DNA of 64,000 bases from positions 141,741 through 205,740 of IMG/VR virus record IMGVR_UViG_3300042465_005589. One strand, given 5' to 3'. The translations under genes were made by a program, and so were the position numbers. This document shows, in pieces, positions 2,724 through 59,254 of the stretch. The notes beneath the pieces are model-generated. The model saw only the letters and a list, made by a program, of their open reading frames with translations. It made no database searches and was not told the origin of the DNA. This DNA comes from a virus. Numbering within the stretch: position 1 is the first letter of the stretch; each line of letters opens with the position of its first letter.

Positions 2724-4310
2724 ATGTCAAATATCATAAAATATAATTTAAGTACATCACCAAATTCAATACAATCAGGTAATTTTAATGTTGCTGTTAA
2801 TAATACTCCAACAAATTTAACCGGATTTTATAACGGAATTTCCCCAATAAATGGGGGTTACACCATTTACATTAATAAAGAGTCTAATGGACCATCCATT
2901 TACGTCCCACAAAATGATAGTGATTTAATTCAAATAGTTAAACAATTGGGGGGTAATGTTTCAACTGCAGCGGAAGCTTTGGTTTGGATTAATTCTCAAA
3001 GTAATATGACGGTTCTAAATAATAATTACCCCTCAATTGTAACCAGTGGACTTGTATTAAATGTAGATGCAGGATTTGTATCTTCATACCCAAAAACCGG
3101 AACAACTTGGAAAGATTTGAGCGGTGGTGGAAATAACGGTACTTTAGTTAATGGACCAACTTATAGTAGTGGGAGTATAGTTTTTGATGGCGCGGATGAT
3201 AGAGTTCAGACAACATATTCTCCAAATTTTGGGGATTTTACAGTTTGTCTTATTTTTAAAGATAATGGTTCAAATGCTTGGGGGAGATTAGTAGATAAAT
3301 TATATACTACAGGTTTTTTCATTTCAAGCTATTTTGCATCATCAGGCGCTAATTACGTAGGCGCCGGAATAATAGAGCCTAATTATCCTTACGGAATAGC
3401 ACTTCCTTATGAATCAGGAAAGTATCACTATTTCGCCTCAGTTAGAAACGGAACAACTCATACAATCTACCTAGATGGTATTACCCAAACCACAAGCAAA
3501 ACAGTATCTTCTAATCTTCTAGATAGTACTTCTATCGCCTTTGGGGATTGGAGCGGGGGGGTAAGTCAACCTTTTAAAGGTGATTTACCATATGTTCAAA
3601 TTTACAACAGAGCACTCTCAGCCGCTGAGGTTCTACAAAACTATTACGCAGGACTACAAAGATTTATACCAACAGACGGATTAGTACTTTCATTAGATGC
3701 TCAAAATACAAATTTATATGCAATCTCTCCAACCACAGCATACGATGTGAGTGGGAATAATATAAATGGTACATTAACAAATGGTGTTCAATATGTTGGT
3801 GATGGAAATGGTTCATGGAGATTTGACGGGGTTGATGATGTGATAACATTAGGTTATCAACCATTATTAAATAATACTGATATAACACAGGAAGCTTGGG
3901 TTAATGGAAATTCTTTTACGAGTTGGCACGGAATTATTTCAAACATGCCTTCTTGGGGGACAGGGTTTAGTTTACAAATTGGTATAATACAAAATATTGC
4001 GGCAATGGTTAGTGGGACTTATTTGAAAACTTCTTGGGCGCCCTCTGTAAATGTTTGGTATCACATTGTGGCAACACATAGAAGTAGTGATAATTTCACT
4101 GCATTATATGTTAATGGTGTTTTAGAAAATACAACAACGCAAGCGGTAACTTATTCTGAAAATGCGATAACAACAATAGGGGTTTTTTATACTTCAGGGT
4201 CATTACCATTTAATGGTGAGATTGGGTCTGTTAAAACATACAACAGAGCATTAACGGCAACAGAAGTAACAACAATATATAACGCAACTAAATCAAGATA
4301 CGGATTATAA
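2724..4310 (+). CDS. Protein with two tandem LamG-like (Laminin_G_3 / concanavalin-like) domains. Candidate receptor-binding or tail-fibre-associated protein.
   Basis: Two repeated modules. The first runs W-KDLSGGGNNGTLVNGPTYSS...FDGADDRV and ends ...YNRALSAAEVLQNYY. The second runs YDVSGNNINGTLTNGVQYVGDG...FDGVDDVI and ends ...YNRALTATEVTTIYN. These are characteristic Laminin_G_3 motifs. Confidence 0.65.
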   Translation: MSNIIKYNLSTSPNSIQSGNFNVAVNNTPTNLTGFYNGISPINGGYTIYINKESNGPSIYVPQNDSDLIQIVKQLGGNVSTAAEALVWINSQSNMTVLNNNYPSIVTSGLVLNVDAGFVSSYPKTGTTWKDLSGGGNNGTLVNGPTYSSGSIVFDGADDRVQTTYSPNFGDFTVCLIFKDNGSNAWGRLVDKLYTTGFFISSYFASSGANYVGAGIIEPNYPYGIALPYESGKYHYFASVRNGTTHTIYLDGITQTTSKTVSSNLLDSTSIAFGDWSGGVSQPFKGDLPYVQIYNRALSAAEVLQNYYAGLQRFIPTDGLVLSLDAQNTNLYAISPTTAYDVSGNNINGTLTNGVQYVGDGNGSWRFDGVDDVITLGYQPLLNNTDITQEAWVNGNSFTSWHGIISNMPSWGTGFSLQIGIIQNIAAMVSGTYLKTSWAPSVNVWYHIVATHRSSDNFTALYVNGVLENTTTQAVTYSENAITTIGVFYTSGSLPFNGEIGSVKTYNRALTATEVTTIYNATKSRYGL

Positions 4311-5601: not shown

Positions 5602-5919
5602 TTAATTTAATCTTCTAGTAAAAAAAGTTGATTTTAATGCTGACGGTTCATTAAATTTAATTGAAACATATTCTTTACAGATATCCACCAAATCAGGTAT
5701 AGACATCCCTAACATATTTTTAGCGGTATAAAAATCATCGTAGTCAAATCGTATTGATTCTTGTTTGGTATCATATTCAAAAGCGGTACGACCATTATCA
5801 TCCATATATTCATATAGAACGTGAGGATACCCCATACGTATCGGTCGTCTCCCGTGTTTCTCATAACCCCTAAAGGTCATATCAAAATATTTAAAGATGA
5901 GTTCTTTCTTTCTGTTCAT
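5602..5919 (-). CDS. Hypothetical protein.
   Basis: 105-aa ORF spaced 2 nt from the upstream gene. Confidence 0.55.
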   Translation of the reverse strand: MNRKKELIFKYFDMTFRGYEKHGRRPIRMGYPHVLYEYMDDNGRTAFEYDTKQESIRFDYDDFYTAKNMLGMSIPDLVDICKEYVSIKFNEPSALKSTFFTRRLN

Positions 5920-7437: not shown

Positions 7438-7508
7438 CAAAAAAAGGGGCGGGGGGATTTTAATTCGACCGGAGGAAGATTGGGTGGGGAATAACGTTAC
7501 CACCAACC
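7438..7508. repeat. Intergenic repeat copy A (AAAAAAAGGGGCGGGGGGATTTTAATTCGACCGGAGGAAGATTGGGTGGGG...).
   Basis: It shares the AAAAAAGGGGGCGGGGGGATT head with copies B and C. It sits directly upstream, on the coding strand, of gene 6379..7416. Confidence 0.55.
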
Positions 7509-8458: not shown

Positions 8459-9116
8459 ACCATCCTAATTTAACAGTATCTTTATGTTTTTGTTCAAAGT
8501 AAGTACAGTGCTTTTCAACTATCTCATTAATCATCACTATAACTTCTTCCTCACTATAACTTCTTTTTTGTTGCCATTTAGCACCAAATTTCATAGCTCC
8601 TAATACAAATCCTTTAGTAAGTTGTCCACAAAAATTAGTTTCCATAAATTTTTCAAAAGCTTCTTCAAGTGTTTCTTTAGATTCTTGTTTTGGTTCATCA
8701 GCAAAGTACATTCTTCTAATATGATATTTCCCAAATGTATATTTTCCGTTTATAAAATCTCCTTCTACTATTTCAACTTCCTCACAACTTGGATTCTTTA
8801 CAAAAAATTGTAAAAACTCATCATCAATCTTTTGCACACCATCTTTGATTAAGTCTTGGTCTGTTGTTAATATCACTTTGTTTTTAAAATTACCTTCATC
8901 TCTTGGTCTTGCTTGAAACACACTTCCTTCATATAGATAATAGTCTTTATCATATATACCTTCTTCATCAGATGTTATATACACATACTCGTGGGAACAC
9001 TTGGTACATTCGTTACTATTGGAATGGGATAAATTATCAAACCTCAATTTATTGGAATCCAAATCTCTCCACAATCTACTCTCCTTATCGGTGGGAATTA
9101 AAAATATGTTTTTCAT
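8436..9116 (-). CDS. Hypothetical protein, tandem paralog of 7628..8458 with a divergent C-terminal half.
   Basis: Conserved N-terminal domain. The promoter motif TATCTTTGT lies 13 nt upstream. Confidence 0.65.
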   Translation of the reverse strand: MKNIFLIPTDKESRLWRDLDSNKLRFDNLSHSNSNECTKCSHEYVYITSDEEGIYDKDYYLYEGSVFQARPRDEGNFKNKVILTTDQDLIKDGVQKIDDEFLQFFVKNPSCEEVEIVEGDFINGKYTFGKYHIRRMYFADEPKQESKETLEEAFEKFMETNFCGQLTKGFVLGAMKFGAKWQQKRSYSEEEVIVMINEIVEKHCTYFEQKHKDTVKLGWFEQFKKK

Positions 9117-9128
9117 AAATTATTTTTT

Positions 9129-9152
9129 TACAAAGATAACATTATTTTCCAA
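9129..9152 (-). promoter_or_regulatory. Conserved upstream motif copy (plus strand reads TACAAAGATAACATTATTTT).
   Basis: 13 nt upstream of the start of gene 8436..9116. Confidence 0.45.
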
Positions 9153-9639
9153 ACAATTCAAAAAATTTATCCTTATTTGTTTTCTCGGGTGGAAAAATAA
9201 ATGATTGAACGTGAAAGGTTATATAATCCATATCACTATAGGTCATCTTAAAATAATCATCAATCTCCTTACCGTATTCATTCTTACTTTTCTTCATACC
9301 ATTATGATTATTAAAATAGATATCAATACCAACCAAATACTTATATATCGGATTAAATGTCATAGGGTCATACACAGTTTGTTCTCTATAACCAACTGAA
9401 ACAACATCGTTAATCTCGGGACATAACTTCAAGATAACATCCTTGAATGTTTCGGGGATTGAAATCACCTTATTATCAGGAGACCCGTTGAGGTCAGGTT
9501 CAACACCTTTTTGTAATTCTCGTATAGGTTCATAATAATCCCGATAACATCCAGCAGGTCCGGTATCTATAATCCTATATGCCCCGTTTTCGTCTTCGTT
9601 TTCCATAATAACAATTAGAACATTTCTTTTACTGCACAA
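9142..9639 (-). CDS. Hypothetical protein.
   Basis: 165-aa ORF. Confidence 0.55.
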   Translation of the reverse strand: MCSKRNVLIVIMENEDENGAYRIIDTGPAGCYRDYYEPIRELQKGVEPDLNGSPDNKVISIPETFKDVILKLCPEINDVVSVGYREQTVYDPMTFNPIYKYLVGIDIYFNNHNGMKKSKNEYGKEIDDYFKMTYSDMDYITFHVQSFIFPPEKTNKDKFFELFGK

Positions 9640-9911
9640 ATATCTTGTGTTTCGTTTGTGATTTTATCTCTACGAATATCCATTTCGTTAAGTTGTTCGG
9701 CTAATGAGGCATAACCATATTCATCATTGGTCGGTTTCATTTCCCAAGCATTTACTTCAACATAATTAATAGCTTCCTCTTGAGTCATACCATCTAATTC
9801 CGGATAATCAGAAAGGGTTAATTCTACCGGTTGTTTAGTGATTGATGTTTCATAATATTCTCTTGAGAATACTGCAATTGTTTTTGGGGTTTGTTCTGTT
9901 TGTTCTGACAT
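9615..9911 (-). CDS. Hypothetical acidic protein.
   Basis: 98-aa ORF that overlaps the downstream gene by 25 nt. Confidence 0.5.
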   Translation of the reverse strand: MSEQTEQTPKTIAVFSREYYETSITKQPVELTLSDYPELDGMTQEEAINYVEVNAWEMKPTNDEYGYASLAEQLNEMDIRRDKITNETQDICAVKEMF

Positions 9912-9940
9912 GATATATAATTTTAGATAAAGATATAAAT

Positions 9941-9965
9941 AAAAAACCCCACAATCAAGTGGGGG
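9941..9965 (-). terminator. Intrinsic terminator. The minus strand reads CCCCCACTTGATTGTGGGG followed by TTTTTT.
   Basis: 6-bp GC stem plus a T run, directly after the stop of 9966..10256. Confidence 0.6.
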
Positions 9966-10256
9966 TTAATAAAGTTCCTGGTAATTACGATAATAATCAA
10001 TCCTATTACCAAAATTTTTTCTAATTAAATCAGTTACATAAACTTTCTGTCCTAATGTTAAATCCTGTCTATCCGTTAAGTCGGAAATAACACGACGAAC
10101 AACCTCATCAAAATAATCATCACGATAATAAAATCTGGATACAATTGTAGGTTCACCCATAGAAACCAAATACTTGTCAACAAGTTTTCTGATAAGGTCA
10201 ATTCTTCTCTTAAACCATATGTTATTAAATTGATTCTCTGTAATTATTATTTTCAT
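9966..10256 (-). CDS. Hypothetical protein of the ITE family (MKIIITENQFNNIW...).
   Basis: Conserved N-terminus. An intrinsic terminator follows the stop at 9941-9965. Confidence 0.6.
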   Translation of the reverse strand: MKIIITENQFNNIWFKRRIDLIRKLVDKYLVSMGEPTIVSRFYYRDDYFDEVVRRVISDLTDRQDLTLGQKVYVTDLIRKNFGNRIDYYRNYQELY

Positions 10257-10258
10257 AT

Positions 10259-10633
10259 CTATTCTTCTTTTACAAAATTATCAATAATAGTGCTAAGAGG
10301 AATTCCAAACATATCAATACCCATATAAGATAATAGTCGATGTTCATCAATACGTTCAACATATTCGGGTTTATAACCACCTTCATAAATAAACCATTCA
10401 CGACCTTCACGTTGTTGAGCCAACCACTTGCCATTTCCGGGTGTCTTAATCCAAAACATAGGTCCCCAATGATTTAATAGTGTATTAAATTCTCCTTTAC
10501 TCTCAAACATACGACGTATAAGAACATTAGCTTCCCAATAATTTGTAATCATTTCAATCGTATCCGACAAGTCATACCCCAATGTGTTGTTGACCATATT
10601 CATCAACTTACTTTCTGCAATAATAATTCTCAT
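10259..10633 (-). CDS. Hypothetical protein of the ITE family (MRIIIAESKLMNMV...), paralog of 4897..5259.
   Basis: See 4897..5259. Repeat copy B sits directly upstream. Confidence 0.65.
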   Translation of the reverse strand: MRIIIAESKLMNMVNNTLGYDLSDTIEMITNYWEANVLIRRMFESKGEFNTLLNHWGPMFWIKTPGNGKWLAQQREGREWFIYEGGYKPEYVERIDEHRLLSYMGIDMFGIPLSTIIDNFVKEE

Positions 10634-10656
10634 AATGATAAATATACATCATTCCA

Positions 10657-10704
10657 AAAAAAGGGGGCGGGGGGATTTGAGAACGACCGAAGGGAGTCCG
10701 GGTT
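10657..10704. repeat. Intergenic repeat copy B (AAAAAAAGGGGGCGGGGGGATTTGAGAACGACCGAAGGGAGTCCGGGTTATC).
   Basis: It shares an identical 19-nt core, GACCGAAGGGAGTCCGGGT, with copy C. It sits directly upstream of 10259..10633 and overlaps the stop of 10703..11302. Confidence 0.6.
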
Positions 10705-11302
10705 ATCTTTCATTATAAAAATCATCTAAAAATATTTCCAAAGAAGTTTTAGTATTATTTCTCATCATACTAAGTTTTATTAATCTATTGTAATCATCAC
10801 TCCCCTTAACAAATGTTTTAGAAAGACCAACTTGGGTATTACCCTCATTTGACTTTTTTGTCCCATTTTGATATGTTAAATTAAACTCTTTCACAAATGA
10901 ATATAATGGAATACAGTAGTATTCCGTATTAAAATTATCTAAAGCGTCTACGAAGGTAATTAATAAAAAATCAAAATGTTGATAAGGTCTAATATTCTTA
11001 ACATTAAACTTCTTATTTACACTTATTGATAATTTATTTTCAAAAACAATATTCTCTTTAGTTTTTTTGGTTCTAAGAAAAAAATCACCATACCCTAATG
11101 ATGCGGGAATAGGATACAAATACTTAAAATGATATAATAATTTATCCGTCCATTTATTACCATAAGACTGTGAATTACAATACAAGTAACAATTAATAAA
11201 AAATCTAATCCAATCCCCTTTGAATACAATATCTGAAATTACATTATGACTAACTAATTTCTTATTAGCTAATACCAATTCTTTTAATACGTTTTTTCTC
11301 AT
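10703..11302 (-). CDS. Hypothetical protein, weak candidate for a PD-(D/E)xK-type nuclease. The gene is bracketed by repeat copies B and C.
   Basis: The track ORF starts at a TTG (11308) and the first ATG is at 11300-11302. A possible D...(IVF)ENK motif (GYGDFFL ... IVFENKL) is the only functional hint. Confidence 0.5.
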   Translation of the reverse strand: MRKNVLKELVLANKKLVSHNVISDIVFKGDWIRFFINCYLYCNSQSYGNKWTDKLLYHFKYLYPIPASLGYGDFFLRTKKTKENIVFENKLSISVNKKFNVKNIRPYQHFDFLLITFVDALDNFNTEYYCIPLYSFVKEFNLTYQNGTKKSNEGNTQVGLSKTFVKGSDDYNRLIKLSMMRNNTKTSLEIFLDDFYNER

Positions 11303-11317
11303 TATCAATTTATTTTT

Positions 11318-11345
11318 GACAAAGATATAAATAATATTTTAATTA
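11318..11345 (-). promoter_or_regulatory. Conserved upstream motif copy (GACAAAGATATAAATAATATTTT).
   Basis: About 15 nt upstream of the start of 10703..11302. Confidence 0.45.
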
Positions 11346-11353
11346 TCCAAACA

Positions 11354-11430
11354 AAAAAGGGGGCGGGGGGATTGAACCCGACCGAAGGGAGTCCGGGTCC
11401 ACAGAGGTCCGTCATTCCCGACCCCAACCG
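11354..11430. repeat. Intergenic repeat copy C, the longest (AAAAAAGGGGGCGGGGGGATTGAACCCGACCGAAGGGAGTCCGGGTCCACAGAGGTCCGTCATTCCCGACCCCAACC).
   Basis: It sits upstream of 10703..11302 and overlaps the 3' end of 11412..11819. Confidence 0.6.
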
Positions 11431-11819
11431 TAATGAATAATCTTACCATTCACGTATTCCTTCCAAGTTTTATTCCAACGTCCCGAGAACAATACCGTCA
11501 TACATCCGGAACTATTAGATATCCGATGATAGGAATCACGGGGGAAATAAACCAACACCTTCTCACGTCTAGCAATACGATATTCCCCACTAATCTCATC
11601 ATCCAAGATGTGCTCGTCATACCCCCCAAACAGTTTCACAGACCACGCGTTAAAAGCGTGGGTATGAAACCTATCCTGACTACCAAAGGATTTATGAAAA
11701 TAAAAGAAGATGATGGAGAATAGCCACTTACATTCAAAGACCACGAATTGACTAACGATTTGTTCCCCAAACTCAAACCTGTTGTATTTGAGAAATGAAA
11801 TTGATTTTGTTTTTACCAT
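11412..11819 (-). CDS. Hypothetical protein, locally higher in GC. Its C-terminal codons overlap repeat copy C.
   Basis: 135 aa, preferred over the antisense ORF 11433..11723 because it is longer and matches the strand of its neighbours. Identity unknown. Confidence 0.4.
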   Translation of the reverse strand: MVKTKSISFLKYNRFEFGEQIVSQFVVFECKWLFSIIFFYFHKSFGSQDRFHTHAFNAWSVKLFGGYDEHILDDEISGEYRIARREKVLVYFPRDSYHRISNSSGCMTVLFSGRWNKTWKEYVNGKIIHYGWGRE

Positions 11820-11890
11820 AATTGTTATATACCTTATGGAATTAAATGATAATCAATTATATTCCGGATGTCAACCAATCAAAGCGGGGG

Positions 11891-13153
11891 TTAATGTCTA
11901 TTCCCTTGACTCTTGTTATCAGAACTCTCCTGTAACACCAAGTTATCATACGTACTATCACCACCTTTAGAATGTGGTTTATCCTTATGACCCCCATTTA
12001 TAACCTTACCGTTCTTAACCTGAAGGGGGGTGTAAATCTCAACACTACCATCCAACCTCGTAACAACACCTCCGGTCTCAATACACTTAGCCAACTTCTC
12101 CATCTCAGTGAACAATCTCTTAGAATCCAACTCATAGAAGTATTCCCCAATAAACGGGTGGAAATCATTATACATACACTCAAACTTATATTTCAAATTC
12201 TTAGTCATAGAACGACATAGATATGTCCAATTACTATTCATAGGATTCTTAAAGGTATCAATTATCCTCTGATTGTCCAATTCCAAATACTTATCAACAA
12301 ACTCAGATATCAAATCCTTATTCAATACACAGTTGTATTCACGACTCATATCCAATAAGAACATAAACAAATTAAATGAATTACCCTTAGTAATATCCGA
12401 TTTAGTTTCGTGTATCAAATTAATACACTTACCCCATACCTTCATAATGTCATTGAAATTCTTCTCATTGAATATTTCAACATTCTTATACATCAAATCC
12501 AAATTAGTAGTGTTCAATGTCTTGTCCTTTGATTGGTGATAAGATAAAAACTGACTAACCAATTCCAAATCTTTCATCCTTGAAAAGGTCAACCCACTTA
12601 TCTTTAATAACTCCCCACTATAATCAATACCGTTCTTACGAATAAACTCAGAAATAATCCCCTCCTCAGCATTCCTTCTCTCTTGGGGATTAGCAGATGT
12701 ATTACTGTTCAAATTAATGAAGGTTCTATGTAATTGATTCTTCGTAGCATTGAAAATATACTTTAAACTAATCTCACTATTGAAGAAGTCAAACATCATA
12801 TCACTCAATGGGGAATTCCAATCAATCTCATTATACTTCTCAATCAAAAACTCAGTCCTGTTCCCCCCATCTATTGAAATGTAACGATACCCCTGATTCC
12901 ATAAACTTGAAAAATATTCATAGTCCTTCGTATTATTCTGACTAAAGGAATATTCCATTGAAGACTTAATGTCACACAATACAATGTTACTCGCATCTGT
13001 ACCATCTAACAATGATAAATGATAACTAACCTTGTCGGTTTTCTTCCACACTTTTCTTCTTTGAATAGTTGGGTCATAATATACCCTATTCCCCTTAACA
13101 ATGTGAATGAACCCCTGAATTGTTTTTGACTCGTACTTCTTAATGATTCCCAT
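11891..13153 (-). CDS. Candidate GmrSD-like type IV (modification-dependent) restriction protein, with an N-terminal DUF262 (ParB-like) region and a C-terminal DUF1524 (HNH-like) region.
   Basis: DUF262-like motifs YYDPTIQRRKVW and ISIDGGNRTEF (compare xPxYQRxYxW ... IDGQQR). C-terminal GGHKDKPHSKGGDSTYDNLVLQESSDNKSQGN resembles the DUF1524 H..P...GG...NL.L...N..KGN signature. Promoter motif lies 27 nt upstream. Confidence 0.55.
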   Translation of the reverse strand: MGIIKKYESKTIQGFIHIVKGNRVYYDPTIQRRKVWKKTDKVSYHLSLLDGTDASNIVLCDIKSSMEYSFSQNNTKDYEYFSSLWNQGYRYISIDGGNRTEFLIEKYNEIDWNSPLSDMMFDFFNSEISLKYIFNATKNQLHRTFINLNSNTSANPQERRNAEEGIISEFIRKNGIDYSGELLKISGLTFSRMKDLELVSQFLSYHQSKDKTLNTTNLDLMYKNVEIFNEKNFNDIMKVWGKCINLIHETKSDITKGNSFNLFMFLLDMSREYNCVLNKDLISEFVDKYLELDNQRIIDTFKNPMNSNWTYLCRSMTKNLKYKFECMYNDFHPFIGEYFYELDSKRLFTEMEKLAKCIETGGVVTRLDGSVEIYTPLQVKNGKVINGGHKDKPHSKGGDSTYDNLVLQESSDNKSQGNRH

Positions 13154-13179
13154 AACGTTTATGTTTTAAAGTTTAACGG

Positions 13180-13207
13180 GACAAAGATAATACTTTTTTT
13201 TTAATAA
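13180..13207 (-). promoter_or_regulatory. Conserved upstream motif copy (GACAAAGATAATACTTTTTTTTTTAATA).
   Basis: 27 nt upstream of the GmrSD-like gene start. Confidence 0.5.
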
Positions 13208-13426
13208 CCAAATTTTTTCCAGAATTTTTTTTTTCATATCTCATATTCCAATATACGATATGACCCCATCCGGAAATTTTCCGGATTACTAATCATTATT
13301 TCCGGATACCCAATTAACAGGGGGGATTTTCCCCAATTTTTTTCCAAAAATTTTTTAAGGTTTTTTTTCTCGAATACTTTGTTTAAGGGATTATCCCCCC
13401 TATTTGACTGTCAATATGTCATATAT

Positions 13427-13475
13427 GGAGGGGGGATACGGGGGAGGGAGGGGGTATGCCCCCACATAGGGGGTA
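13427..13475 (+). other. G-quadruplex-forming motif (G6-ATAC-G5-A-G3-A-G5) that overlaps mutually exclusive GC hairpins (GGGGGTATGCCCCC and CCCCCACATAGGGGG).
   Basis: GGAGGGGGGATACGGGGGAGGGAGGGGGTATGCCCCCACATAGGGGG, set in a genome of about 30% GC. Confidence 0.6.
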
Positions 13476-13531
13476 AGATGGGAGGAGTTATCATAAGTTA
13501 TGAACACTCCCTCCGGTATGATGTTAATAAG

Positions 13532-13972
13532 TTATTGCATTATGTAATGGTCACGACGTATTCGTCTTGGTACATTAACTATCTCCCCTCTGAAGTTTTC
13601 GTAAGGGTAATTGATTTGGAATTCTTCCGGTAGTTGTTCATTGACATCAGTCATTAGACGTTCCATGTTATCTGTTGTATCATATGATAGGTCTTTAAGT
13701 TGGGGGTTGTCATCGTAACTGAATAGACCACCCAATGTATATGTTTCATATGGACCTTGTGTATCAAGATGTTCTACCCAATGTTTATTGGTTTCAATAC
13801 CAAAGAAGTTAGCTAACATCTTATAGTCCACCATGAAGTCAATGTTTAACATGGTATCATACTTAAGGAAGTCATTAGATGGTTTCCATCCTAAGATGAA
13901 AGGGTATTTCTTTTTGATAGCGTTGACCATCATGTCCACACTTCTCATTTGTTTTTTAGTTAATTGTTCCAT
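13532..13972 (-). CDS. Hypothetical protein inside the low-coding region.
   Basis: 146-aa ORF with protein-like composition. Confidence 0.5.
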   Translation of the reverse strand: MEQLTKKQMRSVDMMVNAIKKKYPFILGWKPSNDFLKYDTMLNIDFMVDYKMLANFFGIETNKHWVEHLDTQGPYETYTLGGLFSYDDNPQLKDLSYDTTDNMERLMTDVNEQLPEEFQINYPYENFRGEIVNVPRRIRRDHYIMQ

Positions 13973-14054
13973 ATGTTAATAAATATAATGAAATTTGTTT
14001 GTGGATACAAATCTTTTTTGTATCTTTGTACCACAGAATCGGTAATCAGTCCGG

Positions 14055-14096
14055 ATGGGGGCGAACCTTAAGGGTGGAAGAGTAGACTCCACAGCG
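14055..14096. repeat. Degenerate repeat copy D (GGATGGGGGCGAACCTTAAGGGTGGAAGAGTAGACTCCACAG).
   Basis: It shares the GGGGGCG(A/G), AAGGG and CCACAG segments with copy C. Confidence 0.35.
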
Positions 14097-14414
14097 CTCT
14101 ATATTTATATATATCCCCCCATTTACTGAGAATATGATAATGGAGTATATATACTTCTGAAAATAATTGTTAATGAATCCCCCATTTTGTTGAGAATGTC
14201 ATAATTTATTTATATCTTTGTTAATTGACGGTGATTATCGCCGGTAACTATTAAACATTTAAACTATGATGATACTATTTAATATACTAATTGTGATGGG
14301 GGTTCTTATTTTCATTGGTGAAGTTGTGGCTCAGAAACTACCTAAAGACAATTCCTTTGTTATATGGTGGAGGAAACATATCATCGAACATTTATCCGAT
14401 GATGACCCCCGATT

Positions 14415-14744
14415 CTAATTCCCGTTTATAATATAGTCCTCGACACATTGAAGGGAATGTTCCCTTATCTCCATAGTCATCCCTGTTAAGTCATCACTTG
14501 ATAGGGGGGAATCTATATTTATCTTTTCTATAATATCCCCCATCTCACATGCCGTTAGAAGTAAAATCTTTTGACTGATTGGTTTTCTCTGTCCCGGAAG
14601 ACTAACATAATTATACTCACACACTCCTGTGTACTGCTCATAACTATAATTTACAATATACTTTTCCCCCTCACAAACAACCTCAATTGCGAAATTGTTT
14701 AGTAATCTTTGACTCTTATTTAGACTTGTTCTGTTTTGGTACAT
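14415..14744 (-). CDS. Hypothetical protein inside the low-coding region.
   Basis: 109-aa ORF. Confidence 0.45.
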   Translation of the reverse strand: MYQNRTSLNKSQRLLNNFAIEVVCEGEKYIVNYSYEQYTGVCEYNYVSLPGQRKPISQKILLLTACEMGDIIEKINIDSPLSSDDLTGMTMEIREHSLQCVEDYIINGN

Positions 14745-15282
14745 ATTATTAACACTTATTTGTTAATAAATATAAGGGTCTAATGTTTATTCTACATACT
14801 CATGGGGGGAATTGTTGATAACTTAATATGTTAAATTCCTTGATTTTGTCAAAATGTCATGTCTGTTTCACGATGGGGATAATCCTTTTTCCCACTTTTT
14901 CCCCCATTTAACCTACACAGTCTACCACTTTTTACCACCGGATATGGTCATGACGCTATGTCAGTGTCCACTTTTCCCCCTCTGTAGGTAGTGTTAGGAC
15001 CAATAAATTAGGTATAGACGTTTCCCAGTAAATTGTATTAGTTATGGTCTATGATGCGGTGGAACCGTTAGGTGTTAGGAGATTCACTTCAACGACCCGT
15101 TAAGGGTATATAATTGACCACTAATGAACGAATTAAAAATATATAATATGGGACACTATAGAGACATAAAATACCATTAAAACTTACTATTCGTATCACT
15201 CTTGTGAGTTTAAAACTGACTGTAGTGATACAAAACATAACTTTTTAATCGATACCGTAATACAAGTTACCGTAACGTCCAT

Positions 15283-15340
15283 TACAATGTTCATTTAAAT
15301 CTATTGTTCATTGCAAATGAACATACTCTAATAATGAACA
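15283..15340. promoter_or_regulatory. Cluster of TGTTCATT / AATGAACA half-sites, including the palindrome TGTTCATTGCAAATGAACA. Operator-like.
   Basis: Four half-sites within 58 nt at 15288-15295, 15305-15323 and 15333-15340. Confidence 0.4.
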
Positions 15341-15712
15341 CCTCATCCGGATAACTAATCATGTCTGTAGTTTGTGTCGGAGACCGACACATAGTGGAGT
15401 CCCACTCTATATGGGGGGAACTTGTTCCCCCAACATAAATGGGGGGATTGTTTACTTGACTATTAATGGTCAATAGTAAAATGTATATATGGTGAGTAAA
15501 AGGATTATAATATATGATGTGTAAAGTAAAACAGTTATAATATGTAAACTAATAGTATCTGTATAGATTATTGAGTTTTTTATACAGATGGAAGTTAACG
15601 TATATAAATAAATGGATTTCTTATACATAAGAAAATAGTAAAGGATAAAACTATGAGTGAATTCCGGAGTGAAACGCAGGACTATGAACGAATGGTTTAA
15701 TCGTTTAGTATT

Positions 15713-16171
15713 TTACATATTGTATTCTAATGCGTCAACCATAAACAGGAAAATCTCATCTAATGTATTATCATCTAAATCCGTATATCGTTCAGTAAAA
15801 CTACCTTTGTGTCTATCATACTCTTCACCATCATAAACATCTATGGTAACAAAGTCCGGATTGAAATACTCAATTTGTTGTAACTCATAATCAGGAGAAC
15901 CATATGGAATAGCATTCATATTTAATTCATACGTAGATATCCCGGTTGAATTGTATTTTTCTGTTAACTGTTTTATTGCATCTCTAATGAAATTAATTTT
16001 ATCATCAATGGTAAAGTATTTGTGACCAAGAATATTTAATATTGGTTCATATCCACCCATTAACTTAATGGTATGATATAACCCGTACTTGGATATCATA
16101 TTCTTCACCATTTCCTCCCGGTTCTCCGTTAGTAATGATTGGATTCTATGTATGTTCTCGTGTAAATTCAT
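15713..16171 (-). CDS. Hypothetical protein of the MNL N-terminal family (MNLHENIHRIQSLLTEN...), paralog of 16175..16597.
   Basis: Conserved N-terminus plus an internal similar block (LQQIEYFNPDFVTIDVYDGEEYDRHKGSF vs LRQIEYLGKNRAMVDVYDEDMGTHLGDY). Confidence 0.6.
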   Translation of the reverse strand: MNLHENIHRIQSLLTENREEMVKNMISKYGLYHTIKLMGGYEPILNILGHKYFTIDDKINFIRDAIKQLTEKYNSTGISTYELNMNAIPYGSPDYELQQIEYFNPDFVTIDVYDGEEYDRHKGSFTERYTDLDDNTLDEIFLFMVDALEYNM

Positions 16172-16174
16172 ATC

Positions 16175-16597
16175 TTACTTATTGATTAATATCTCAACCA
16201 ATTCATCAAGTATTTGCCCCGGCAAACTTTCATATGGAATATTATAATCACCTAAATGAGTACCCATATCCTCATCATAAACATCTACCATAGCTCGGTT
16301 CTTACCCAAATATTCTATTTGACGTAATTCACCATCCTGTTCACTAAAATGAATTGGTTCTTCATTTATCTCGTGTAAAGCAAAACCACTACCATCATCA
16401 TTTATTTCTATAATTTTCTCTTTAATATAATTTACTTTGTCAATTTCCTTTAAGTATGGCTCAATCACATAGTAATTCCCCGTCATTTTAATGGCGTCAG
16501 CAACACCCATCTTGTCAATCATATTTCTGATGGCTTTATCCCTGTCATTTTCAGAGATTAAGGTATTAATTCTTTGTATGTTTTCTATTAAGTTCAT
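16175..16597 (-). CDS. Hypothetical protein of the MNL family (MNLIENIQRINTLISEN...).
   Basis: Paralog of 15713..16171. Confidence 0.6.
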   Translation of the reverse strand: MNLIENIQRINTLISENDRDKAIRNMIDKMGVADAIKMTGNYYVIEPYLKEIDKVNYIKEKIIEINDDGSGFALHEINEEPIHFSEQDGELRQIEYLGKNRAMVDVYDEDMGTHLGDYNIPYESLPGQILDELVEILINK

Positions 16598-17355
16598 TAT
16601 CCAATATTTGCTCCGGTTATTTGTCTAACCCCATATTCAGGGAAATGTTTCTTAAAGTAGTCCTGAACCGCATACCTGTAATGTCTTGACACATATCCAA
16701 AAGGAACAAATTGAACTAACTCATCATGTAATGAATAGTCCCACCATATTTGTTCGTCCTTTTTATCGTATCTCATTAAAGTTTTTTTAAGGTCTTTATC
16801 ATTAAACAATATAATTACATTATCATTCTCATCATACGCGTTTATTGCCATATCTAAAAACTTAACCATAGTTTTCCCCCACTTTGGATATTCATCTTCA
16901 TACTCTTGGTCAAAAGAAGCTCTTGAAACATAAGCGTCTTTACCCTCGCTCATCATATGTTTAAACACTTGTTTAATATGTTTTGGTAAGGAATTAATCG
17001 GTATTACTTTTGCTCTAATTGTTTCTAATCCTTGTCTTGCGGCTTTCTGTGCTCTGTGGTGCCCATCTATAATCGTTATGAACTCCCCATCATCATTAAC
17101 AAAGATTAATATTGGATATTGTAAGTCAGCGCTTTCTATCTTTCTAACCTCATCTTCATCCCCATCCCACGATAATAAGTGTGACTTTAATTCTTCTACA
17201 GATATTTTCCTCACCGGAATATCTTCTGTGGCGTTTAATAAATCAATAAGGGTGATTTTATCCCCCTCGTCATTTTCCCAAGATGTATCATGCAACCCTT
17301 CATTGATTACCCCCATCATCTGATGGATTCTATGTATGTTCTCTTGTAAGTTCAT
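16597..17355 (-). CDS. ParB-like nuclease domain protein of the MNL family (MNLQENIHRIHQMM...).
   Basis: ParB N-terminal domain signature ...ILIFVNDDGEFITIIDGHHRAQKAARQGLETIRAKVIP... Confidence 0.6.
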   Translation of the reverse strand: MNLQENIHRIHQMMGVINEGLHDTSWENDEGDKITLIDLLNATEDIPVRKISVEELKSHLLSWDGDEDEVRKIESADLQYPILIFVNDDGEFITIIDGHHRAQKAARQGLETIRAKVIPINSLPKHIKQVFKHMMSEGKDAYVSRASFDQEYEDEYPKWGKTMVKFLDMAINAYDENDNVIILFNDKDLKKTLMRYDKKDEQIWWDYSLHDELVQFVPFGYVSRHYRYAVQDYFKKHFPEYGVRQITGANIG

Positions 17356-25047: not shown

Positions 25048-25072
25048 ACAAAGATAATACTTTTTTTAATAC
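25048..25072 (-). promoter_or_regulatory. Conserved upstream motif copy (GACAAAGATAATACTTTTTTTAATA) with no protein gene downstream on the minus strand.
   Basis: An ORF-free, GC-richer stretch of about 140 nt follows, then a hairpin terminator. Confidence 0.45.
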
Positions 25073-25167
25073 TACCAAACTTTTTTAAAGTTTTTTTTAT
25101 TTATTATCTAATTAACTTTAATGTCAGTAGTTATACGTATCATACATTAAAAAAGTTACAAAAACAT

Positions 25168-27284: not shown

Positions 27285-28004
27285 TTATTTTTTGTGGAAT
27301 TCAATAACTTCCCACACACCTTTTTTTGTCTCAACAAGAGCGGTACAATTTTCACACCAATCCCCACTATTCATATAATTATCTTTTAACTCCGGTTGAT
27401 GAATGTGTCCACATACGGCAACATCACATCCTTTTTTGTAAGCCAATAGTATTGCGTTATGTTCAAAATCATTTATAAAGTTAACGGCTTTCTTAACACC
27501 ATTCTTAATATCTTTAGAGATGGAATAATAAGGTAACCCTCTCATCTCACGATATTTGTTATAAACTCTATTCATCCATAATGCTAAGTCATAACCTATT
27601 GAACCAATGTGAGCCAACCATTTTGCTTTGGTTATAAATACATCCAACACATCTCCGTGAAACACATACATCTTACGACCATCTATAGATGTGAAAGTAT
27701 AATCCTCCGTGATTGTTAGATTGGATAATTGGAATGGAATAAAATCTTTTAGGAACTCATCGTGATTTCCTCTGAGCCAAATAACATTCACACCTTTCTC
27801 ACTCATCTTCATTATCTTTCTCAATACTTTGGTATGACTTTCCTTCCATTTCCCACCTCTTTTAAGAGCCCAACCATCTACGATATCACCATTTAAAATT
27901 AAGGTCTCTGTGGTGTTGTTTTCAAGAAATTCTACCACATCTTCAGCTCTACTTGATTTAGAACCCAAGTGAATGTCTGATAGAATTATTGTTTTATATT
28001 TCAT
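27285..28004 (-). CDS. Calcineurin-like metallophosphoesterase, possibly LpxH-like.
   Basis: Motifs ILSDIHLGS, LNGDIVDGW, LRGNHDEF and CGHIHQP. Confidence 0.7.
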   Translation of the reverse strand: MKYKTIILSDIHLGSKSSRAEDVVEFLENNTTETLILNGDIVDGWALKRGGKWKESHTKVLRKIMKMSEKGVNVIWLRGNHDEFLKDFIPFQLSNLTITEDYTFTSIDGRKMYVFHGDVLDVFITKAKWLAHIGSIGYDLALWMNRVYNKYREMRGLPYYSISKDIKNGVKKAVNFINDFEHNAILLAYKKGCDVAVCGHIHQPELKDNYMNSGDWCENCTALVETKKGVWEVIEFHKK

Positions 28005-28714
28005 TATGTCCAGTAATTATGTTCCTTTGTGAAGAACTCATCGTTATTTCTATTAAACCAAGATTTAATCATCATCTTAACCATATAGAATAAACCTTTG
28101 TTCTTAAATCGTCTTGATGTGGTATAAACAATTTTGTCCGCTACATAAAACTTATTTGGTTTTATCTTTGAACTTAAATGATAATCCTCAGCGAACTTGT
28201 CATCCGGATTAAATCCTCCCAATGAATTAAATTCCTCTAAATTAAATAACATAAATCCTCCAACCGCAAATGGTGTAGAGAATTTGGTTAAGTATTGGAT
28301 AACATCAAATGATTTATACACATAATTGTAATCACCATCGTCAGTTCTCATTTTAGTTGTTGACAAATGATAATCATTTTCTTTCATAACTTCAACCATA
28401 CAATTTAATAGGCAATATTGGTTGATGAATATGTCGGCATCCAAAAATAAAACATAAGGAGTTTTTATCTTTTTGGTTCCGTTGTTTCTGGCTTCGGCAG
28501 GAAATCCCCCTTTAACTATTTTTACATTGATATTGGTATGGTATGAACCAAGAATACATTTCTGTGTGAATCCATCGTCCGTTGAAGAATCGGCAACCAT
28601 TACATTTACACCTTTAATATTATTTTGCAAGTTTAACAATCCTAAAGTTTTCTTTATGATTAATCCCTCATTTTTACAGGGGATTACAATTGTTAAATCC
28701 TTACTTAAACTCAT
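28004..28714 (-). CDS. Glycosyltransferase family 2.
   Basis: TIVIPCKNE (N-terminal GT2 signature) and the DxD motif in LFLDADIF. Confidence 0.7.
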   Translation of the reverse strand: MSLSKDLTIVIPCKNEGLIIKKTLGLLNLQNNIKGVNVMVADSSTDDGFTQKCILGSYHTNINVKIVKGGFPAEARNNGTKKIKTPYVLFLDADIFINQYCLLNCMVEVMKENDYHLSTTKMRTDDGDYNYVYKSFDVIQYLTKFSTPFAVGGFMLFNLEEFNSLGGFNPDDKFAEDYHLSSKIKPNKFYVADKIVYTTSRRFKNKGLFYMVKMMIKSWFNRNNDEFFTKEHNYWT

Positions 28715-31564: not shown

Positions 31565-32422
31565 TTATTTTCTATTTAATAATATTCCCTGAGCCGAACC
31601 AAACACATTATTATGTCCGTATTCTGATGTACCATTCGTAGCTCTTATTCTCTCGGTCTCCGCTCTATACAACTCTAACAATTTAGGTTGAGATAAAATT
31701 TCCTTTGTTTTAGCGTCGTATAGTGCTGCCTCATAGTTACCTTTCGCATTTGCCACTTTCTTAAGTGCCGTTTGTTCCGCTTGTTTTGTTTGAGATATAA
31801 TGGTTGCCGTCTCCTGAAGAACCGCAATCTTTCTCTCAATAGCCGCCTTATACGAAGCCGGTAATGCCATTTTAAGGATTGCGATGTTATTCAATGTAAA
31901 CCCTTCTTTCTCTAACGCCACAGTCAAGGTCTTAGTCACGTTCGACTCATACACATTTCTATGTTGTAATAAACTATCCGATGCGAACGATACAGCATTT
32001 TCCAATAATTCCTTTCTAACAATCGTTCTTACTCTTGAATTAATTAAATCCTCCATACCCACTCGATACTTAATAAATAAGTCAGCCGCTCTCGCTCTCT
32101 GTAATTGTAAGTTAATCGACACATCTAACCCGAATGTCGCACCATCCGCAGATGTTACATCAATATGTTCATCCGTTGGGGAATCTTCATTTGAATCTGC
32201 TGACCATACTTTGTGTTGAACCGATGTTGGATACATAAACACATCCTGTGTTGGTGGGAAATAAAAGATAAACCCCGAAGCCATTTCAATATTGGGAATA
32301 CCCTTGTTAGTCCCAATTTGGTCCACCACTAACGCAACCTCAGCCGAGTCAGCAATCTTACAAGAAGCTACTCCAAAAATAAACAATAACACTACACCTA
32401 CTACTACTAAAATTCTTTTCAT
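31565..32422 (-). CDS. SPFH/band-7 (HflK/C-like, prohibitin-like) protein with a lipobox.
   Basis: N-terminal MKRILVVVGVVLLFIFGVASC (lipobox), an SPFH core, and an Ala/Glu/Lys-rich coiled-coil tail. The promoter motif lies 38 nt upstream. Confidence 0.6.
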   Translation of the reverse strand: MKRILVVVGVVLLFIFGVASCKIADSAEVALVVDQIGTNKGIPNIEMASGFIFYFPPTQDVFMYPTSVQHKVWSADSNEDSPTDEHIDVTSADGATFGLDVSINLQLQRARAADLFIKYRVGMEDLINSRVRTIVRKELLENAVSFASDSLLQHRNVYESNVTKTLTVALEKEGFTLNNIAILKMALPASYKAAIERKIAVLQETATIISQTKQAEQTALKKVANAKGNYEAALYDAKTKEILSQPKLLELYRAETERIRATNGTSEYGHNNVFGSAQGILLNRK

Positions 32423-41089: not shown

Positions 41090-41151
41090 AGTACAAAGAT
41101 AATACTTAATCCCATATAAACAAAAAAAAGGAACTAAATGTTCCTTTTTTT

Positions 41152-43810: not shown

Positions 43811-43836
43811 GACAAAGATAATACTATTTTTTTAAT
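43811..43836 (-). promoter_or_regulatory. Conserved upstream motif copy (GACAAAGATAATACTATTTTTTTAATA).
   Basis: 20 nt upstream of the start of 43517..43792. Confidence 0.5.
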
Positions 43837-43850
43837 ATACAAATTTTTTT

Positions 43851-44636: not shown

Positions 44637-44663
44637 GACAAAGATAATACTATTTTTAATATA
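44637..44663 (-). promoter_or_regulatory. Conserved upstream motif copy (GACAAAGATAATACTATTTTTAATATA).
   Basis: 20 nt upstream of the start of 44107..44616. Confidence 0.5.
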
Positions 44664-44665
44664 AA

Positions 44666-44705
44666 CAAAAAAAACCTCAACAAATTTTACTCTGTTGAGG
44701 TTTCA
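44666..44705. terminator. Strong hairpin AACCTCAACA-AATTTTACTC-TGTTGAGGTT flanked by A and T runs.
   Basis: Perfect 10-bp stem that separates the plus-strand RHH/HNH module from the minus-strand block. Confidence 0.6.
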
Positions 44706-46079: not shown

Positions 46080-46445
46080 TTGTGTATTTATAAGTATATG
46101 GAACTAACTATAAACAAAAATAAATTCAAAGTCAAAACTGTTATATCTCCCAAAGACACTAGTCGTGGTATGATGAATAAAAGATTTGACGATACTTTTA
46201 ATGGTATGTTATTTATTATGTCAGATGGTCATCACTGTTTTTGGATGAAGAATTGTATAATTTCATTGGATATCATTATGATTGAAGACGATATTATAAC
46301 AAAAATTCACCACAACTGTCCTCCTTGTAAAACCAAAGATTGTAGAAACTATTGTGGTGAAGGTGATATGATACTTGAACTTCAAGGTGGTACCTGTAAA
46401 AAATTAGGGATTAAGTCCGGAGACAAAATCATTCATTACGATTGA
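46080..46445 (+). CDS. DUF192 (COG1430) family protein.
   Basis: RGMMNKRF...GMLFIMSDGHHCFWMKNCIISLDIIMIEDDIITKI...ILELQGGTCKKLGIKSGDKI. Confidence 0.5.
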   Translation: MCIYKYMELTINKNKFKVKTVISPKDTSRGMMNKRFDDTFNGMLFIMSDGHHCFWMKNCIISLDIIMIEDDIITKIHHNCPPCKTKDCRNYCGEGDMILELQGGTCKKLGIKSGDKIIHYD

Positions 46446-59050: not shown

Positions 59051-59254
59051 ATGGAAACAATCGAAGGACAAATTATTGAGGAAAAGGATATTATTTACGC
59101 CACTCCTGAACAACCTAAAAAAGAATGTAAATCTTGCAAACGTAAAACATTATCAAAAACACATTGGACGATGGTAATATCATCAGTTTATTTATTATTC
59201 GCATCAATATACGGGACTATTAAATTAGTTGAGAAAATAATAAGTCTTTTTTAA
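59051..59254 (+). CDS. Small protein with a C-terminal transmembrane segment.
   Basis: 67-aa ORF. Confidence 0.4.

Follow-up and report, generated by a model that had tools for sequence, protein, structure and literature searches.

The gene at positions 11891–13153 (minus strand) of a 64,000-nucleotide stretch of the IMG/VR virus record IMGVR_UViG_3300042465_005589 (positions 141,741–205,740 of that record; hereafter the window) encodes a 420-residue protein in which a divergent DUF262 domain of the ParB/Srx fold precedes a C-terminal domain that, on sequence comparison, is a nuclease of the Cas9/McrA-type HNH class. An earlier note on this DNA had described the protein as a GmrSD-like Type IV restriction enzyme with DUF262 and DUF1524 domains. 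We confirm the DUF262 domain, whilst the nuclease domain is of a different kind, and profile comparisons place the protein in a DUF262-HNH lineage, carried mostly by marine phages, that is sister to the DUF262-DUF1524 family of GmrSD, BrxU and SspE rather than part of it. By analogy with characterised DUF262 enzymes, it is probably, in our judgement, a single-chain, two-module DNA endonuclease that is gated by nucleoside triphosphate (NTP), expressed early in infection and used to attack non-self DNA.

The open reading frame (ORF) is complete from ATG to stop, and its position and the strings quoted in the earlier note (YYDPTIQRRKVW, ISIDGGNRTEF, GGHKDKPHSKGGDSTYDNLVLQESSDNKSQGN(RH) and GGHKDKPHSKGGDSTYDNLVLQESSDNKSQGNRH) are all present in the ORF listing and translation. 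A word-indexed search recovered 48 homologues, all from metagenomes and none with a functional name, with identities from 95% down to 25% and lengths that are nearly all 418–430 residues. In an exhaustive hidden Markov model search, the family profile matched at least 1,386 representatives at E ≤ 1e-3 (99 at E ≤ 1e-30), each a cluster at 50% identity; nearly all are metagenomic or viral. Conservation is given below for two sets of sequences, a close set of 44 homologues and a wide set of 108 distant members (17–39% identity). In the close alignment, 23 columns are invariant and fall into three blocks: IQRRxxW, ISIDGxNRT, and H389/P393/K396/G398/N404/N413. The ratio of nonsynonymous to synonymous substitution rates (dN/dS) is 0.16–0.30 (about 0.2) in each of three protein regions at a dS of 0.7–1.1, and purifying selection thus acts on all three. 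Given the homologues, the size of the profile-search family and this selection, the gene is a real one. The AlphaFold 2 model of the protein has a mean predicted local distance difference test score (pLDDT) of 87.4 and a predicted template modelling score of 0.76. Direct searches with the window protein were uninformative: nothing relevant was found in Pfam, PADLOC or NCBIfam at E ≤ 10 or in PHROGs at E ≤ 1, the only hits being at chance level (EPS8_2nd at 0.019; a phrog 'HNH endonuclease' at 0.28, in the wrong region). A phmmer search of PDB sequences gave a chance match only, and a contig scan of 185,579 species genomes with patterns from the close family revealed no relative.

The N-terminal domain (residues 1–185; 12599..13153, minus strand, as are all features of the protein) is a divergent DUF262/GmrSD_N domain with the motifs QR..W, DGGNR and FxxxN..QExRN, and by analogy a putative NTP-binding sensor. 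Motif I, IQRRKVW (Q31, R32, W36; 13046..13066), corresponds to the 'QR' motif of GmrS. None of the close sequences departs from R32 or W36, and W36 is found in 108/108 wide sequences. Motif II, IDGGNRT (D95, G96, N98, R99; 12854..12874), is a variant of the DGQQR nucleotide-binding signature, which is the proposed NTP site and which, as (I/V)DGQQR, is conserved in nearly 100% of GmrS domains (PMC4619093). The signature of the present family is DG(N/Q/G)NR, and IDGGNR in the window protein keeps the Asp, Gly and Arg of DGQQR with both Gln replaced. The close set is uniform at G96, N98, R99 and T100, and D95, N98 and R99 are present in 102, 106 and 97 of the 108 wide sequences. Motif III, FINLNSNTSANPQERRN (F145, N149, Q157, E158, R160, N161; 12671..12721), combines FxxxN with a family-specific QExRN extension, and in the wide set F145, N149, E158 and R160 are kept in 95/108, 99/108, 99/108 and 102/108 sequences, respectively. 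The three motifs align with IQREFVW, LDGQQR and IFIRMNSG of BrxU, and Motif III also with F..IN..GEKL..QELRNA of plasmid proteins considered below.

As direct profile matches are absent, the DUF262 assignment is a transitive and structural one. The comparison with the DUF262 and DUF1524 profiles that the earlier note had proposed gave no match at E ≤ 10 when run on the window protein itself, and the DUF262 domain emerges only indirectly. PF03235 is matched by 43 of the 108 distant members (best 3.4e-13). The family member P0079 combines GmrSD_N at residues 43–208 (34.8 bits, cut-off 33.2) with HNH_4 at 426–478 (27.7 bits, cut-off 22) on a single chain, and its end-to-end alignment with the window protein (window residues 26–419) has E 3e-17; a second member, P0057, scores above the GmrSD_N threshold, its alignment having E 4e-36. 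A profile of the N-terminal domain had two matches among 177,635 distinct PDB sequences, BrxU (E 0.014) and DndI (E 0.69), and in the BrxU alignment the three motifs fall in order (FQrrevW/IQREFVW, iDGqNR/LDGQQR and ifislNsG/IFIRMNSG). BrxU and SspE are also the best fold matches in the PDB.

The middle of the protein (residues 186–360; 12074..12598) is all-helical, the AlphaFold 2 model showing helices at residues 193–360 with high pLDDT. It has no Pfam match, is conserved across the family (dN/dS 0.20–0.23), and from the model is a putative linker, DNA-binding or dimerisation scaffold. Beyond it lies the predicted HNH (beta-beta-alpha-metal) domain (residues 361–420; 11894..12073), the protein ending seven residues past the last catalytic Asn, N413. 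H389, the catalytic His and putative general base, is invariant in the close set and is preceded by Gly in place of the usual Asp (G388-H389; 11987..11992). At position 388 the close set has 26 Asp, 12 Gly, 4 Asn and 2 His, and the wide set 59 Asp, 22 Gly and 3 Glu; in the subclade of the window protein the residue is Gly, Asn or His. N404 and N413 (11915..11944), the two Asn of the H-N-N motif, are nine residues apart and both invariant in the 44. Since H389, N404 and N413 do not vary and G-H turns up repeatedly across the family, we regard G-H as a maintained variant rather than a sign of decay. The family thus shows the profile match, the beta-beta-alpha fold and the H-N-N residues of the HNH superfamily, whilst the acidic residue before the His is absent from the window protein.

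The earlier note had seen a DUF1524 motif in this C-terminal segment, a claim that does not survive comparison. DUF1524 (PF07510) was found in 0/44 close and 0/108 wide members (152 scans), whereas PF01844 (HNH) was matched by 27/44 close and 36/108 wide members and PF13395 (HNH_4, Cas9-type) by 14/44 and 25/108; HNH_5 was also matched within the family. Against the PDB, the family profile found Cas9 HNH domains only (E 0.008), and a broader profile found Cas9 HNH at E 1.2e-10 and McrA at 0.006. The GmrD motifs of DUF1524, namely (I/L/V)(E/D)H(I/L/V)xPQ, L(G/A)NLxLLxxxN with its spacing of eight, NxxFxxKK and the W...R...L...W C-terminal helical tail (PMC4619093), are all missing from the window protein, which has GGHKDKPH and an Asn spacing of nine, not eight. 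By these comparisons the C-terminus is a canonical Cas9/McrA-type HNH domain (PF01844/PF13395), not DUF1524. The resemblance that the earlier note picked up is understandable because both domains belong to the His-Me finger superfamily (PMC4619093).

Comparison of whole profiles leads to the same placement. The family profile aligned by hhalign to a Thiomicrorhabdus plasmid protein with 99.4% probability (E 5.9e-22), end to end over 323 columns from QREFVY through DGQQRT to DHIIPWSQGGKT...N...K, and to an Aeromonas plasmid protein with 99.5% probability (E 1.1e-22) over the N-terminal 139 columns; the match to BrxU (from pEFER) reached 42% (E 2.6e-4) over 99 N-terminal columns only. It is on these figures, 99.4–99.5% against 42%, that we distinguish a DUF262-HNH lineage. 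The protein resembles GmrSD, Eco94GmrSD and BrxU in having, on one chain, an N-terminal DUF262 ParB/Srx domain (PF03235), a helical region and a C-terminal His-Me finger nuclease, and shares with GmrSD and BrxU the QR (Q31-R32), DGxxR and FxxxN (F145-x3-N149) motifs. It differs in its nuclease domain, which is PF01844/PF13395 and not PF07510 and is without the GmrD motifs or the C-terminal helical extension, in its length (420 residues against 587), in having DGGNR rather than DGQQR, and in being encoded by apparently lytic phages and not in bacterial defence islands. Membership of GmrSD, as proposed in the earlier note, therefore fails on its second defining feature, and there is no PADLOC match. 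SspE, which has DUF1524, and DndI are phosphorothioate-sensing DUF262 nucleases; no ssp or dnd genes were present among the ~30 of ~110 window ORFs that were scanned, and the sequence relation of DndI to the window family is marginal (E 0.69). Compared with the Cas9 and McrA HNH domains (PF13395, PF01844), the window protein lacks RuvC, guide-RNA machinery and the Cys4 zinc site, and has Gly before the catalytic His.

Members of the family are also found in isolated T4-like cyanophages, as full-length proteins: Synechococcus phage Sf-FS3 ORF32, S-SSM7 gp035 and a protein of S-SSM6a, each 23% identical to the window protein or to P0079. They belong to a distant clade, are 495–505 residues long, have DH rather than GH, are encoded at a conserved site, with 2OG-Fe(II) oxygenase and denV genes around them, and are annotated as 'HNH endonuclease' or 'hypothetical protein'. 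RefSeq labels for members are 'DUF262 domain-containing protein' or 'HNH endonuclease' only. To our knowledge, every characterised DUF262-nuclease fusion has DUF1524 and is cell-encoded. The DUF262-HNH pair of domains has been noted once before, for Sf-FS3 ORF32, where HHpred found a Cas9-type HNH (PF13395) and a DUF262 region with 99.9% probability (PMC12284385); we found no experimental characterisation of any DUF262-HNH family member in the literature.

The bacterial relatives are plasmid proteins of 360–378 residues, named 'DUF262 domain-containing protein' in RefSeq, such as WP_127471937.1 (Thiomicrorhabdus), WP_202154986.1 (Aeromonas) and WP_243254696.1 (Sulfitobacter). They have the same build of DUF262, helical region and C-terminal HNH and share the FxxxN..QE.RNA extension and an H..P.S.GG.T..N HNH motif, but differ from the phage proteins in having canonical DGQQR and DH, Tyr for W36 and ~50 fewer residues. 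At five of the six plasmid loci inspected, a gene for an EcoRI-family adenine methyltransferase lies directly upstream of the DUF262-HNH gene. These two-gene modules (L047:4316-6420, L049:1934-4106, L050:3131-5258, L052:2043-4195 and L048:61-4699) come from Alpha- and Gammaproteobacteria and Bacillota, the hosts being Aeromonas, Lactiplantibacillus, Macrococcoides, Sulfitobacter and Enterococcus. The paired genes overlap or abut in four loci, and in Enterococcus the optrA resistance gene stands between them. On pBGM48-4, for example, the methyltransferase gene spans 1934-2980 and the DUF262-HNH gene 2970-4106. Methyltransferase and DUF262-HNH protein diverge in step, at 44–63% and 40–59% identity. 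Such pairing suggests, from gene order and sequence, a restriction-modification (R-M) arrangement in which the nuclease would be blocked by methylation, a polarity opposite to that of Type IV enzymes. We found no description of a plasmid methyltransferase/DUF262-HNH pair in the literature, and the module may be an undescribed compact system of the R-M type.

The situation in the phages is different. Homologues of the plasmid methyltransferases are absent from the window and from 46 phage loci (tblastn, E ≤ 0.01); unlike its plasmid relatives, the phage gene has no EcoRI-family partner, and its upstream neighbours in the window are small ORFs of no assigned function. The window does encode two DNA methyltransferases, as the earlier note had stated: a PF01555 N6_N4_Mtase with an SPPY motif (48241-49104, minus strand; E 1e-34) and a PF02086 D12/Dam enzyme with DPPY (58110-58958, minus strand; E 2e-27). 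They do not lie beside the gene, however, but ~35 kb and ~45 kb away. The suggestion that the genome carries modifications of its own holds in so far as this is a viral genome with its own methyltransferase genes, though not in the sense of genes adjacent to the nuclease. A systematic methyltransferase partnership in phages was considered and rejected, as a methyltransferase gene is found within 2.5 kb in 2/25 dereplicated phage loci and none is of the EcoRI family. At one of the two (L036:2925-3716) a D12-class (Dam-type) methyltransferase gene lies 76 bp downstream of the homologue, its product 44% identical to that of window 58110-58958, and at the other (L044:2940-3827) a D12-class gene lies 1.5 kb downstream of the DUF262-HNH homologue.

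Promoter and ORF together form a stand-alone cassette in a low-GC, uncultured marine phage. The cassette (11872..13218, minus strand) shares 75–82% nucleotide identity (blastn) with the contigs L044, L045 and L002, in a block that runs from ~65 nt upstream of the ATG, including the promoter, to 10–20 nt after the stop. At the protein level the identity is 77–78% in L044 and L045 (80–82% nucleotide) and 69% in L002, whereas all other proteins common to the window and these contigs are 25–51% identical and not syntenic. The promoter, TTTGGTTATTAAAAAAAAAGTATTATCTTTG (TTTG-N19-TATCTTTG; 13182..13212, minus strand), is of the Bacteroidota sigma-A −33/−7 type and ends 28 nt before the ATG. The earlier note was correct that the gene has its own copy of a common upstream motif: the window contains 20 copies of the pattern TTTG-N17-21-TAnnTTTG, where 4.15 ± 1.97 would be expected, and 0/100 shuffles reach a count of 20. 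All sites are on the minus strand, and examples besides that of the gene are 719-751, 9131-9162, 11320-11351, 25049-25079, 41094-41124, 43813-43843 and 44639-44669. We take the TTTG part of the motif to be the −33 element of Bacteroidota. TAnnTTTG is known as a conserved −7 box from both Flavobacterium and Bacteroides (PMC7641319). From this match, the virus is probably a Bacteroidota phage whose gene is transcribed by the host RNA polymerase, probably early.

How the protein might work can be outlined by analogy. NTP would be bound or hydrolysed in the DUF262 pocket (D95, G96, N98, R99, Q31/R32 and F145/N149), as in BrxU, SspE and GmrSD (PMC10952713, PMC12707154), and this step would activate the HNH site (H389, N404, N413) through a change of conformation or oligomeric state; the helical scaffold joins the two domains. 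The HNH domain would then nick or cut DNA with a divalent metal, using H389 as general base, N413 as metal ligand and N404 in a structural role. With transcription by host RNA polymerase early in infection, the target would be DNA foreign to the phage, whether that of co-infecting elements or the host chromosome, and self and non-self would be told apart by the modification status of the DNA. As to the sense of that discrimination, we lean tentatively towards a nuclease blocked by the phage's own methylation, because an adenine methyltransferase shares an operon with the closest bacterial relatives and the phage has two orphan methyltransferases; the D12 methyltransferase genes that adjoin homologues in L036 and L044 are a further reason to favour this polarity. 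A Type-IV-like nuclease that needs modification of its target seems to us rather unlikely.

Several observations count against the endonuclease proposed here. The DUF262 assignment is transitive and structural, the window protein matching no family profile directly, and with DGGNR instead of DGQQR at the NTP site its competence as an NTPase is not assured. G388 in place of Asp, together with a pLDDT of 56–61 in the HNH loops of the AlphaFold 2 model, means that nuclease activity could be weak or restricted to nicking. The distance of the window methyltransferases from the gene (35–45 kb), the count of 2/25 phage loci and the lack of an EcoRI-family homologue mean that, for the phage proteins, the case for an R-M-like polarity is weak. 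Which DNA is attacked, which nucleotide is used, when the gene is expressed and what the host is are deductions. Lastly, a stand-alone gene is typical of Type IV enzymes, and the mostly partner-less context in phages is what would be expected of one.

This last point bears on the explanation put forward in the earlier note, a true GmrSD-type Type IV enzyme that cleaves modified DNA of competitors, for example with glucosyl-hydroxymethylcytosine, and so excludes superinfecting phages, its own DNA being without that modification. The best fold matches in the PDB (BrxU and SspE), the alignment of the DUF262 motifs with BrxU and the absence of any fixed methyltransferase partner from the phage loci, the usual state for Type IV, are all consistent with it, and characterised DUF262 proteins do act in modification sensing (PMC10952713). 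We nonetheless consider it improbable. DUF1524 is missing from all 152 members scanned and the GmrD motifs are absent; the hhalign match to BrxU (42%, N-terminus only) compares poorly with the 99.4% end-to-end match to a bacterial DUF262-HNH protein of the methyltransferase-coupled kind; PADLOC finds nothing; and many members reside in T4-like cyanophages. The proposed specificity for glucosyl-hydroxymethylcytosine fares no better, as nothing links the window protein to either hydroxymethylcytosine or its glucosylated form (no indicator of substrate was found in silico) and the coupling of the nearest bacterial relatives to methyltransferases suggests the opposite polarity.

Phage HNH genes are often homing endonucleases, and the gene could be a selfish, free-standing one, like the HNH Mob and GIY-YIG Seg enzymes of T4-type phages, that cuts genomes lacking it and uses DUF262 only to bind DNA. 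The contrast between its 69–78% identity among contigs and the 25–51% identity of their other, non-syntenic shared proteins, the discrete promoter-and-ORF block of homology and the presence of GIY-YIG genes in two neighbourhoods would all suit such an element, but recombination at the flanking terminator, 50-nt element and promoter repeats (described below) explains movement of the cassette equally well (PMC2839356, PMC4122927). Purifying selection with invariant columns in all three regions, nucleotide-site motifs included (dN/dS ~0.2), a fixed position beside a ~390-residue gene in ten T4-like loci, which points to vertical inheritance, and a conserved DUF262 nucleotide-site domain where Pfam scans found no NUMOD, IENR1 or AP2-type module are difficult to reconcile with homing, as are bacterial relatives that are methyltransferase-coupled plasmid genes. 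Long-term retention, selection on the nucleotide-site motifs and the lack of homing modules thus argue against a purely selfish homing endonuclease, which we regard as quite unlikely. Least probable of all is a catalytically impaired or non-nuclease DUF262 protein that acts as a modification sensor, a regulator or a nucleotide-hydrolysing factor, its HNH domain only binding DNA. The G388 subclade lacks the metal-ligand or orienting Asp, the HNH loops have low pLDDT, the window protein falls below the threshold of every HNH Pfam model, and the full-length relative P0057 has no detectable HNH. Yet H389, N404 and N413 are invariant in 44/44 close homologues, G-H is stably maintained (22 of ~84 HNH domains in the wide family), dN/dS in the HNH region is 0.16–0.30 and the C-terminus of P0070 matches Endonuclea_NS_2. 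Moreover, G-H together with a single Asn metal ligand is known from other beta-beta-alpha-metal nucleases, such as those with the DRGH motif in the Serratia/EndoG family.

DUF262 sensors recur in bacterial immunity, in GmrSD, BrxU, SspE, DndI, Menshen and Dazbog. The present comparison reveals a large phage-borne sister lineage whose members join DUF262 to a Cas9/McrA-type HNH domain, and which standard Pfam and PADLOC annotation misses because its sequence is so divergent. The departure is not a radical one: both architecture and logic follow a known kind, and the former would not surprise a specialist. The points of note are the size of the phage family, its invisibility to annotation and the methyltransferase-coupled bacterial sister group, which raises the question of polarity. 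If the protein is an active NTP-gated nuclease, the family would be a widespread phage weapon in DNA-level conflict, whether between phages or in host takeover, and the bacterial cousins may represent an undescribed compact R-M type. A broader proposal, which we think unlikely as it stands, sees in the DUF262-HNH proteins a class of NTP-gated restriction nucleases that has gone unrecognised and has classical R-M polarity (blocked by adenine methylation). Together with an EcoRI-family methyltransferase they would make up compact two-gene R-M systems on plasmids of Alpha- and Gammaproteobacteria and Bacillota, and marine phages would have captured the nuclease alone and joined it to their own orphan methyltransferases. 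Were this so, a phage could shred unmethylated host or rival DNA early whilst its own genome was spared, a phage-borne counterpart of host-DNA breakdown by T4, built from the parts of defence systems.

The surroundings of the gene are shuffled in the window's own clade and fixed in the T4-like one. In relatives, a ~50-nt intergenic element, CCCGGACTCCCTTCGGTCGkkTCAAATCCCCCCGCCCCCTTTTTTT, separates a terminator hairpin from the promoter that follows it and flanks the homologue; it is ~90% identical across phages whose shared proteins are 25–51% identical. Hairpin, element and promoter are found on both sides of the homologue in L002, and the downstream side is the same in L044 and L045. Copies lie at 4216-4266, 5646-5688 and 6239-6285 of L002, 1455-1521 of L044, and 11000-11051 and 12076-12144 of L045; the window has three within 5 kb downstream of the gene, none immediately adjoining (10638-10703, 11340-11398 and ~7441-7495, minus strand). 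The element has no Rfam or transfer RNA (tRNA) match, and a tRNA fragment was rejected as its identity, ARAGORN reporting nothing and the apparent stem being without clean covariation. It could serve in recombination or regulation, like PeSL, or be a small RNA. The flanking composite is similar to the PeSL cassettes of promoter and terminator through which modules are shuffled in T4-type phages (PMC2839356, PMC4122927), and the behaviour of the cassette fits a useful accessory gene exchanged by recombination.

In the T4-like clade (22–26% identity; it includes S-SSM7, S-SSM6a and Sf-FS3), the family member stands beside the same ~390-residue gene in ten loci (L015, L016, L018, L019, L021, L024, L028, L035, L037 and, with the order inverted, L017), and downstream genes are shared too. 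A pooled scan of neighbours gave AAA_5/CbbQ_C matches, not assignable to individual proteins, and the ~390-residue gene may be among those that matched. Other neighbours in this clade are gp44/gp45, 2OG-Fe(II) oxygenases and denV. No recurrent partner gene was seen among the 25 dereplicated loci. A packaging-associated (terminase-linked) HNH protein was rejected, as the neighbourhoods scanned contain no terminase or portal gene and members occur in T4-like phages.

The region upstream of the gene, 13154-15712, had been described in the earlier note as 2.5 kb of non-coding DNA, but it holds at least two genes of no assigned function (13532-13972 and 14415-14744, both minus strand) that share a common upstream motif (family D5). 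Their homologues stand upstream of the target homologue in L002, with 26% identity over 123 residues and 40% over 63 residues, respectively, and are the sole trace of local synteny in the window's own clade. The remaining ORF-poor gaps are 378, 442 and 968 nt long. The longest, 14745-15712, has no convincing ORF and no Rfam match and is rich in the short repeats (A/T)ATGGGGGGA(T/A)T and TCCGGATAACTAATCAT; similar G-runs occur at 13315-13404. Scans of the window and the upstream 2.7 kb for tRNA and Rfam families yielded no match that came close to gathering scores. A second motif, TATATTTAT(T/A), often TTATATTTATTAACA directly 5′ of the ATG, precedes ~20 other genes and may be a phage-specific (middle or late) promoter. 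On the downstream side, an intrinsic terminator (AACCCCC...GGGGGTTTTTT) follows the homologue in L044, L045 and L002, and the corresponding site in the window just past the stop (11840-11893, minus strand) is degenerate, the 5′ arm AACCCCCGC alone surviving. Transcription may read through into the downstream cupin-like gene at 11412-11819 (phrog_4786, 'cysteine dioxygenase', E 2e-20). An operon with this gene was rejected, the neighbour being conserved in no relative.

The window as a whole is AT-rich (~31% GC), with dense small genes mostly on the minus strand. Neither blastn of 9000-16900 nor tblastn of two large window proteins found a match among 50,697 isolated phage genomes, and no structural or replication hallmark was recognised among 30 window proteins scanned. 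Relatives of the gene are found on IMG/VR viral contigs of up to 310 kb, one of which (L014) is syntenic with the window at 60–64 kb. The window also encodes cell-like accessory proteins typical of large phages: a full DnaJ with J, CXXCXGXG and C-terminal domains (59251-60168, minus strand), an SPFH/Band-7 protein (31565-32422, minus), a GT2 glycosyltransferase (28004-28714, minus), a calcineurin-like phosphoesterase (27285-28004, minus), a Laminin_G_3/sialidase-N lectin-fold protein (2724-4310, plus) and a protein with a weak DHH match (46436-47842, minus).

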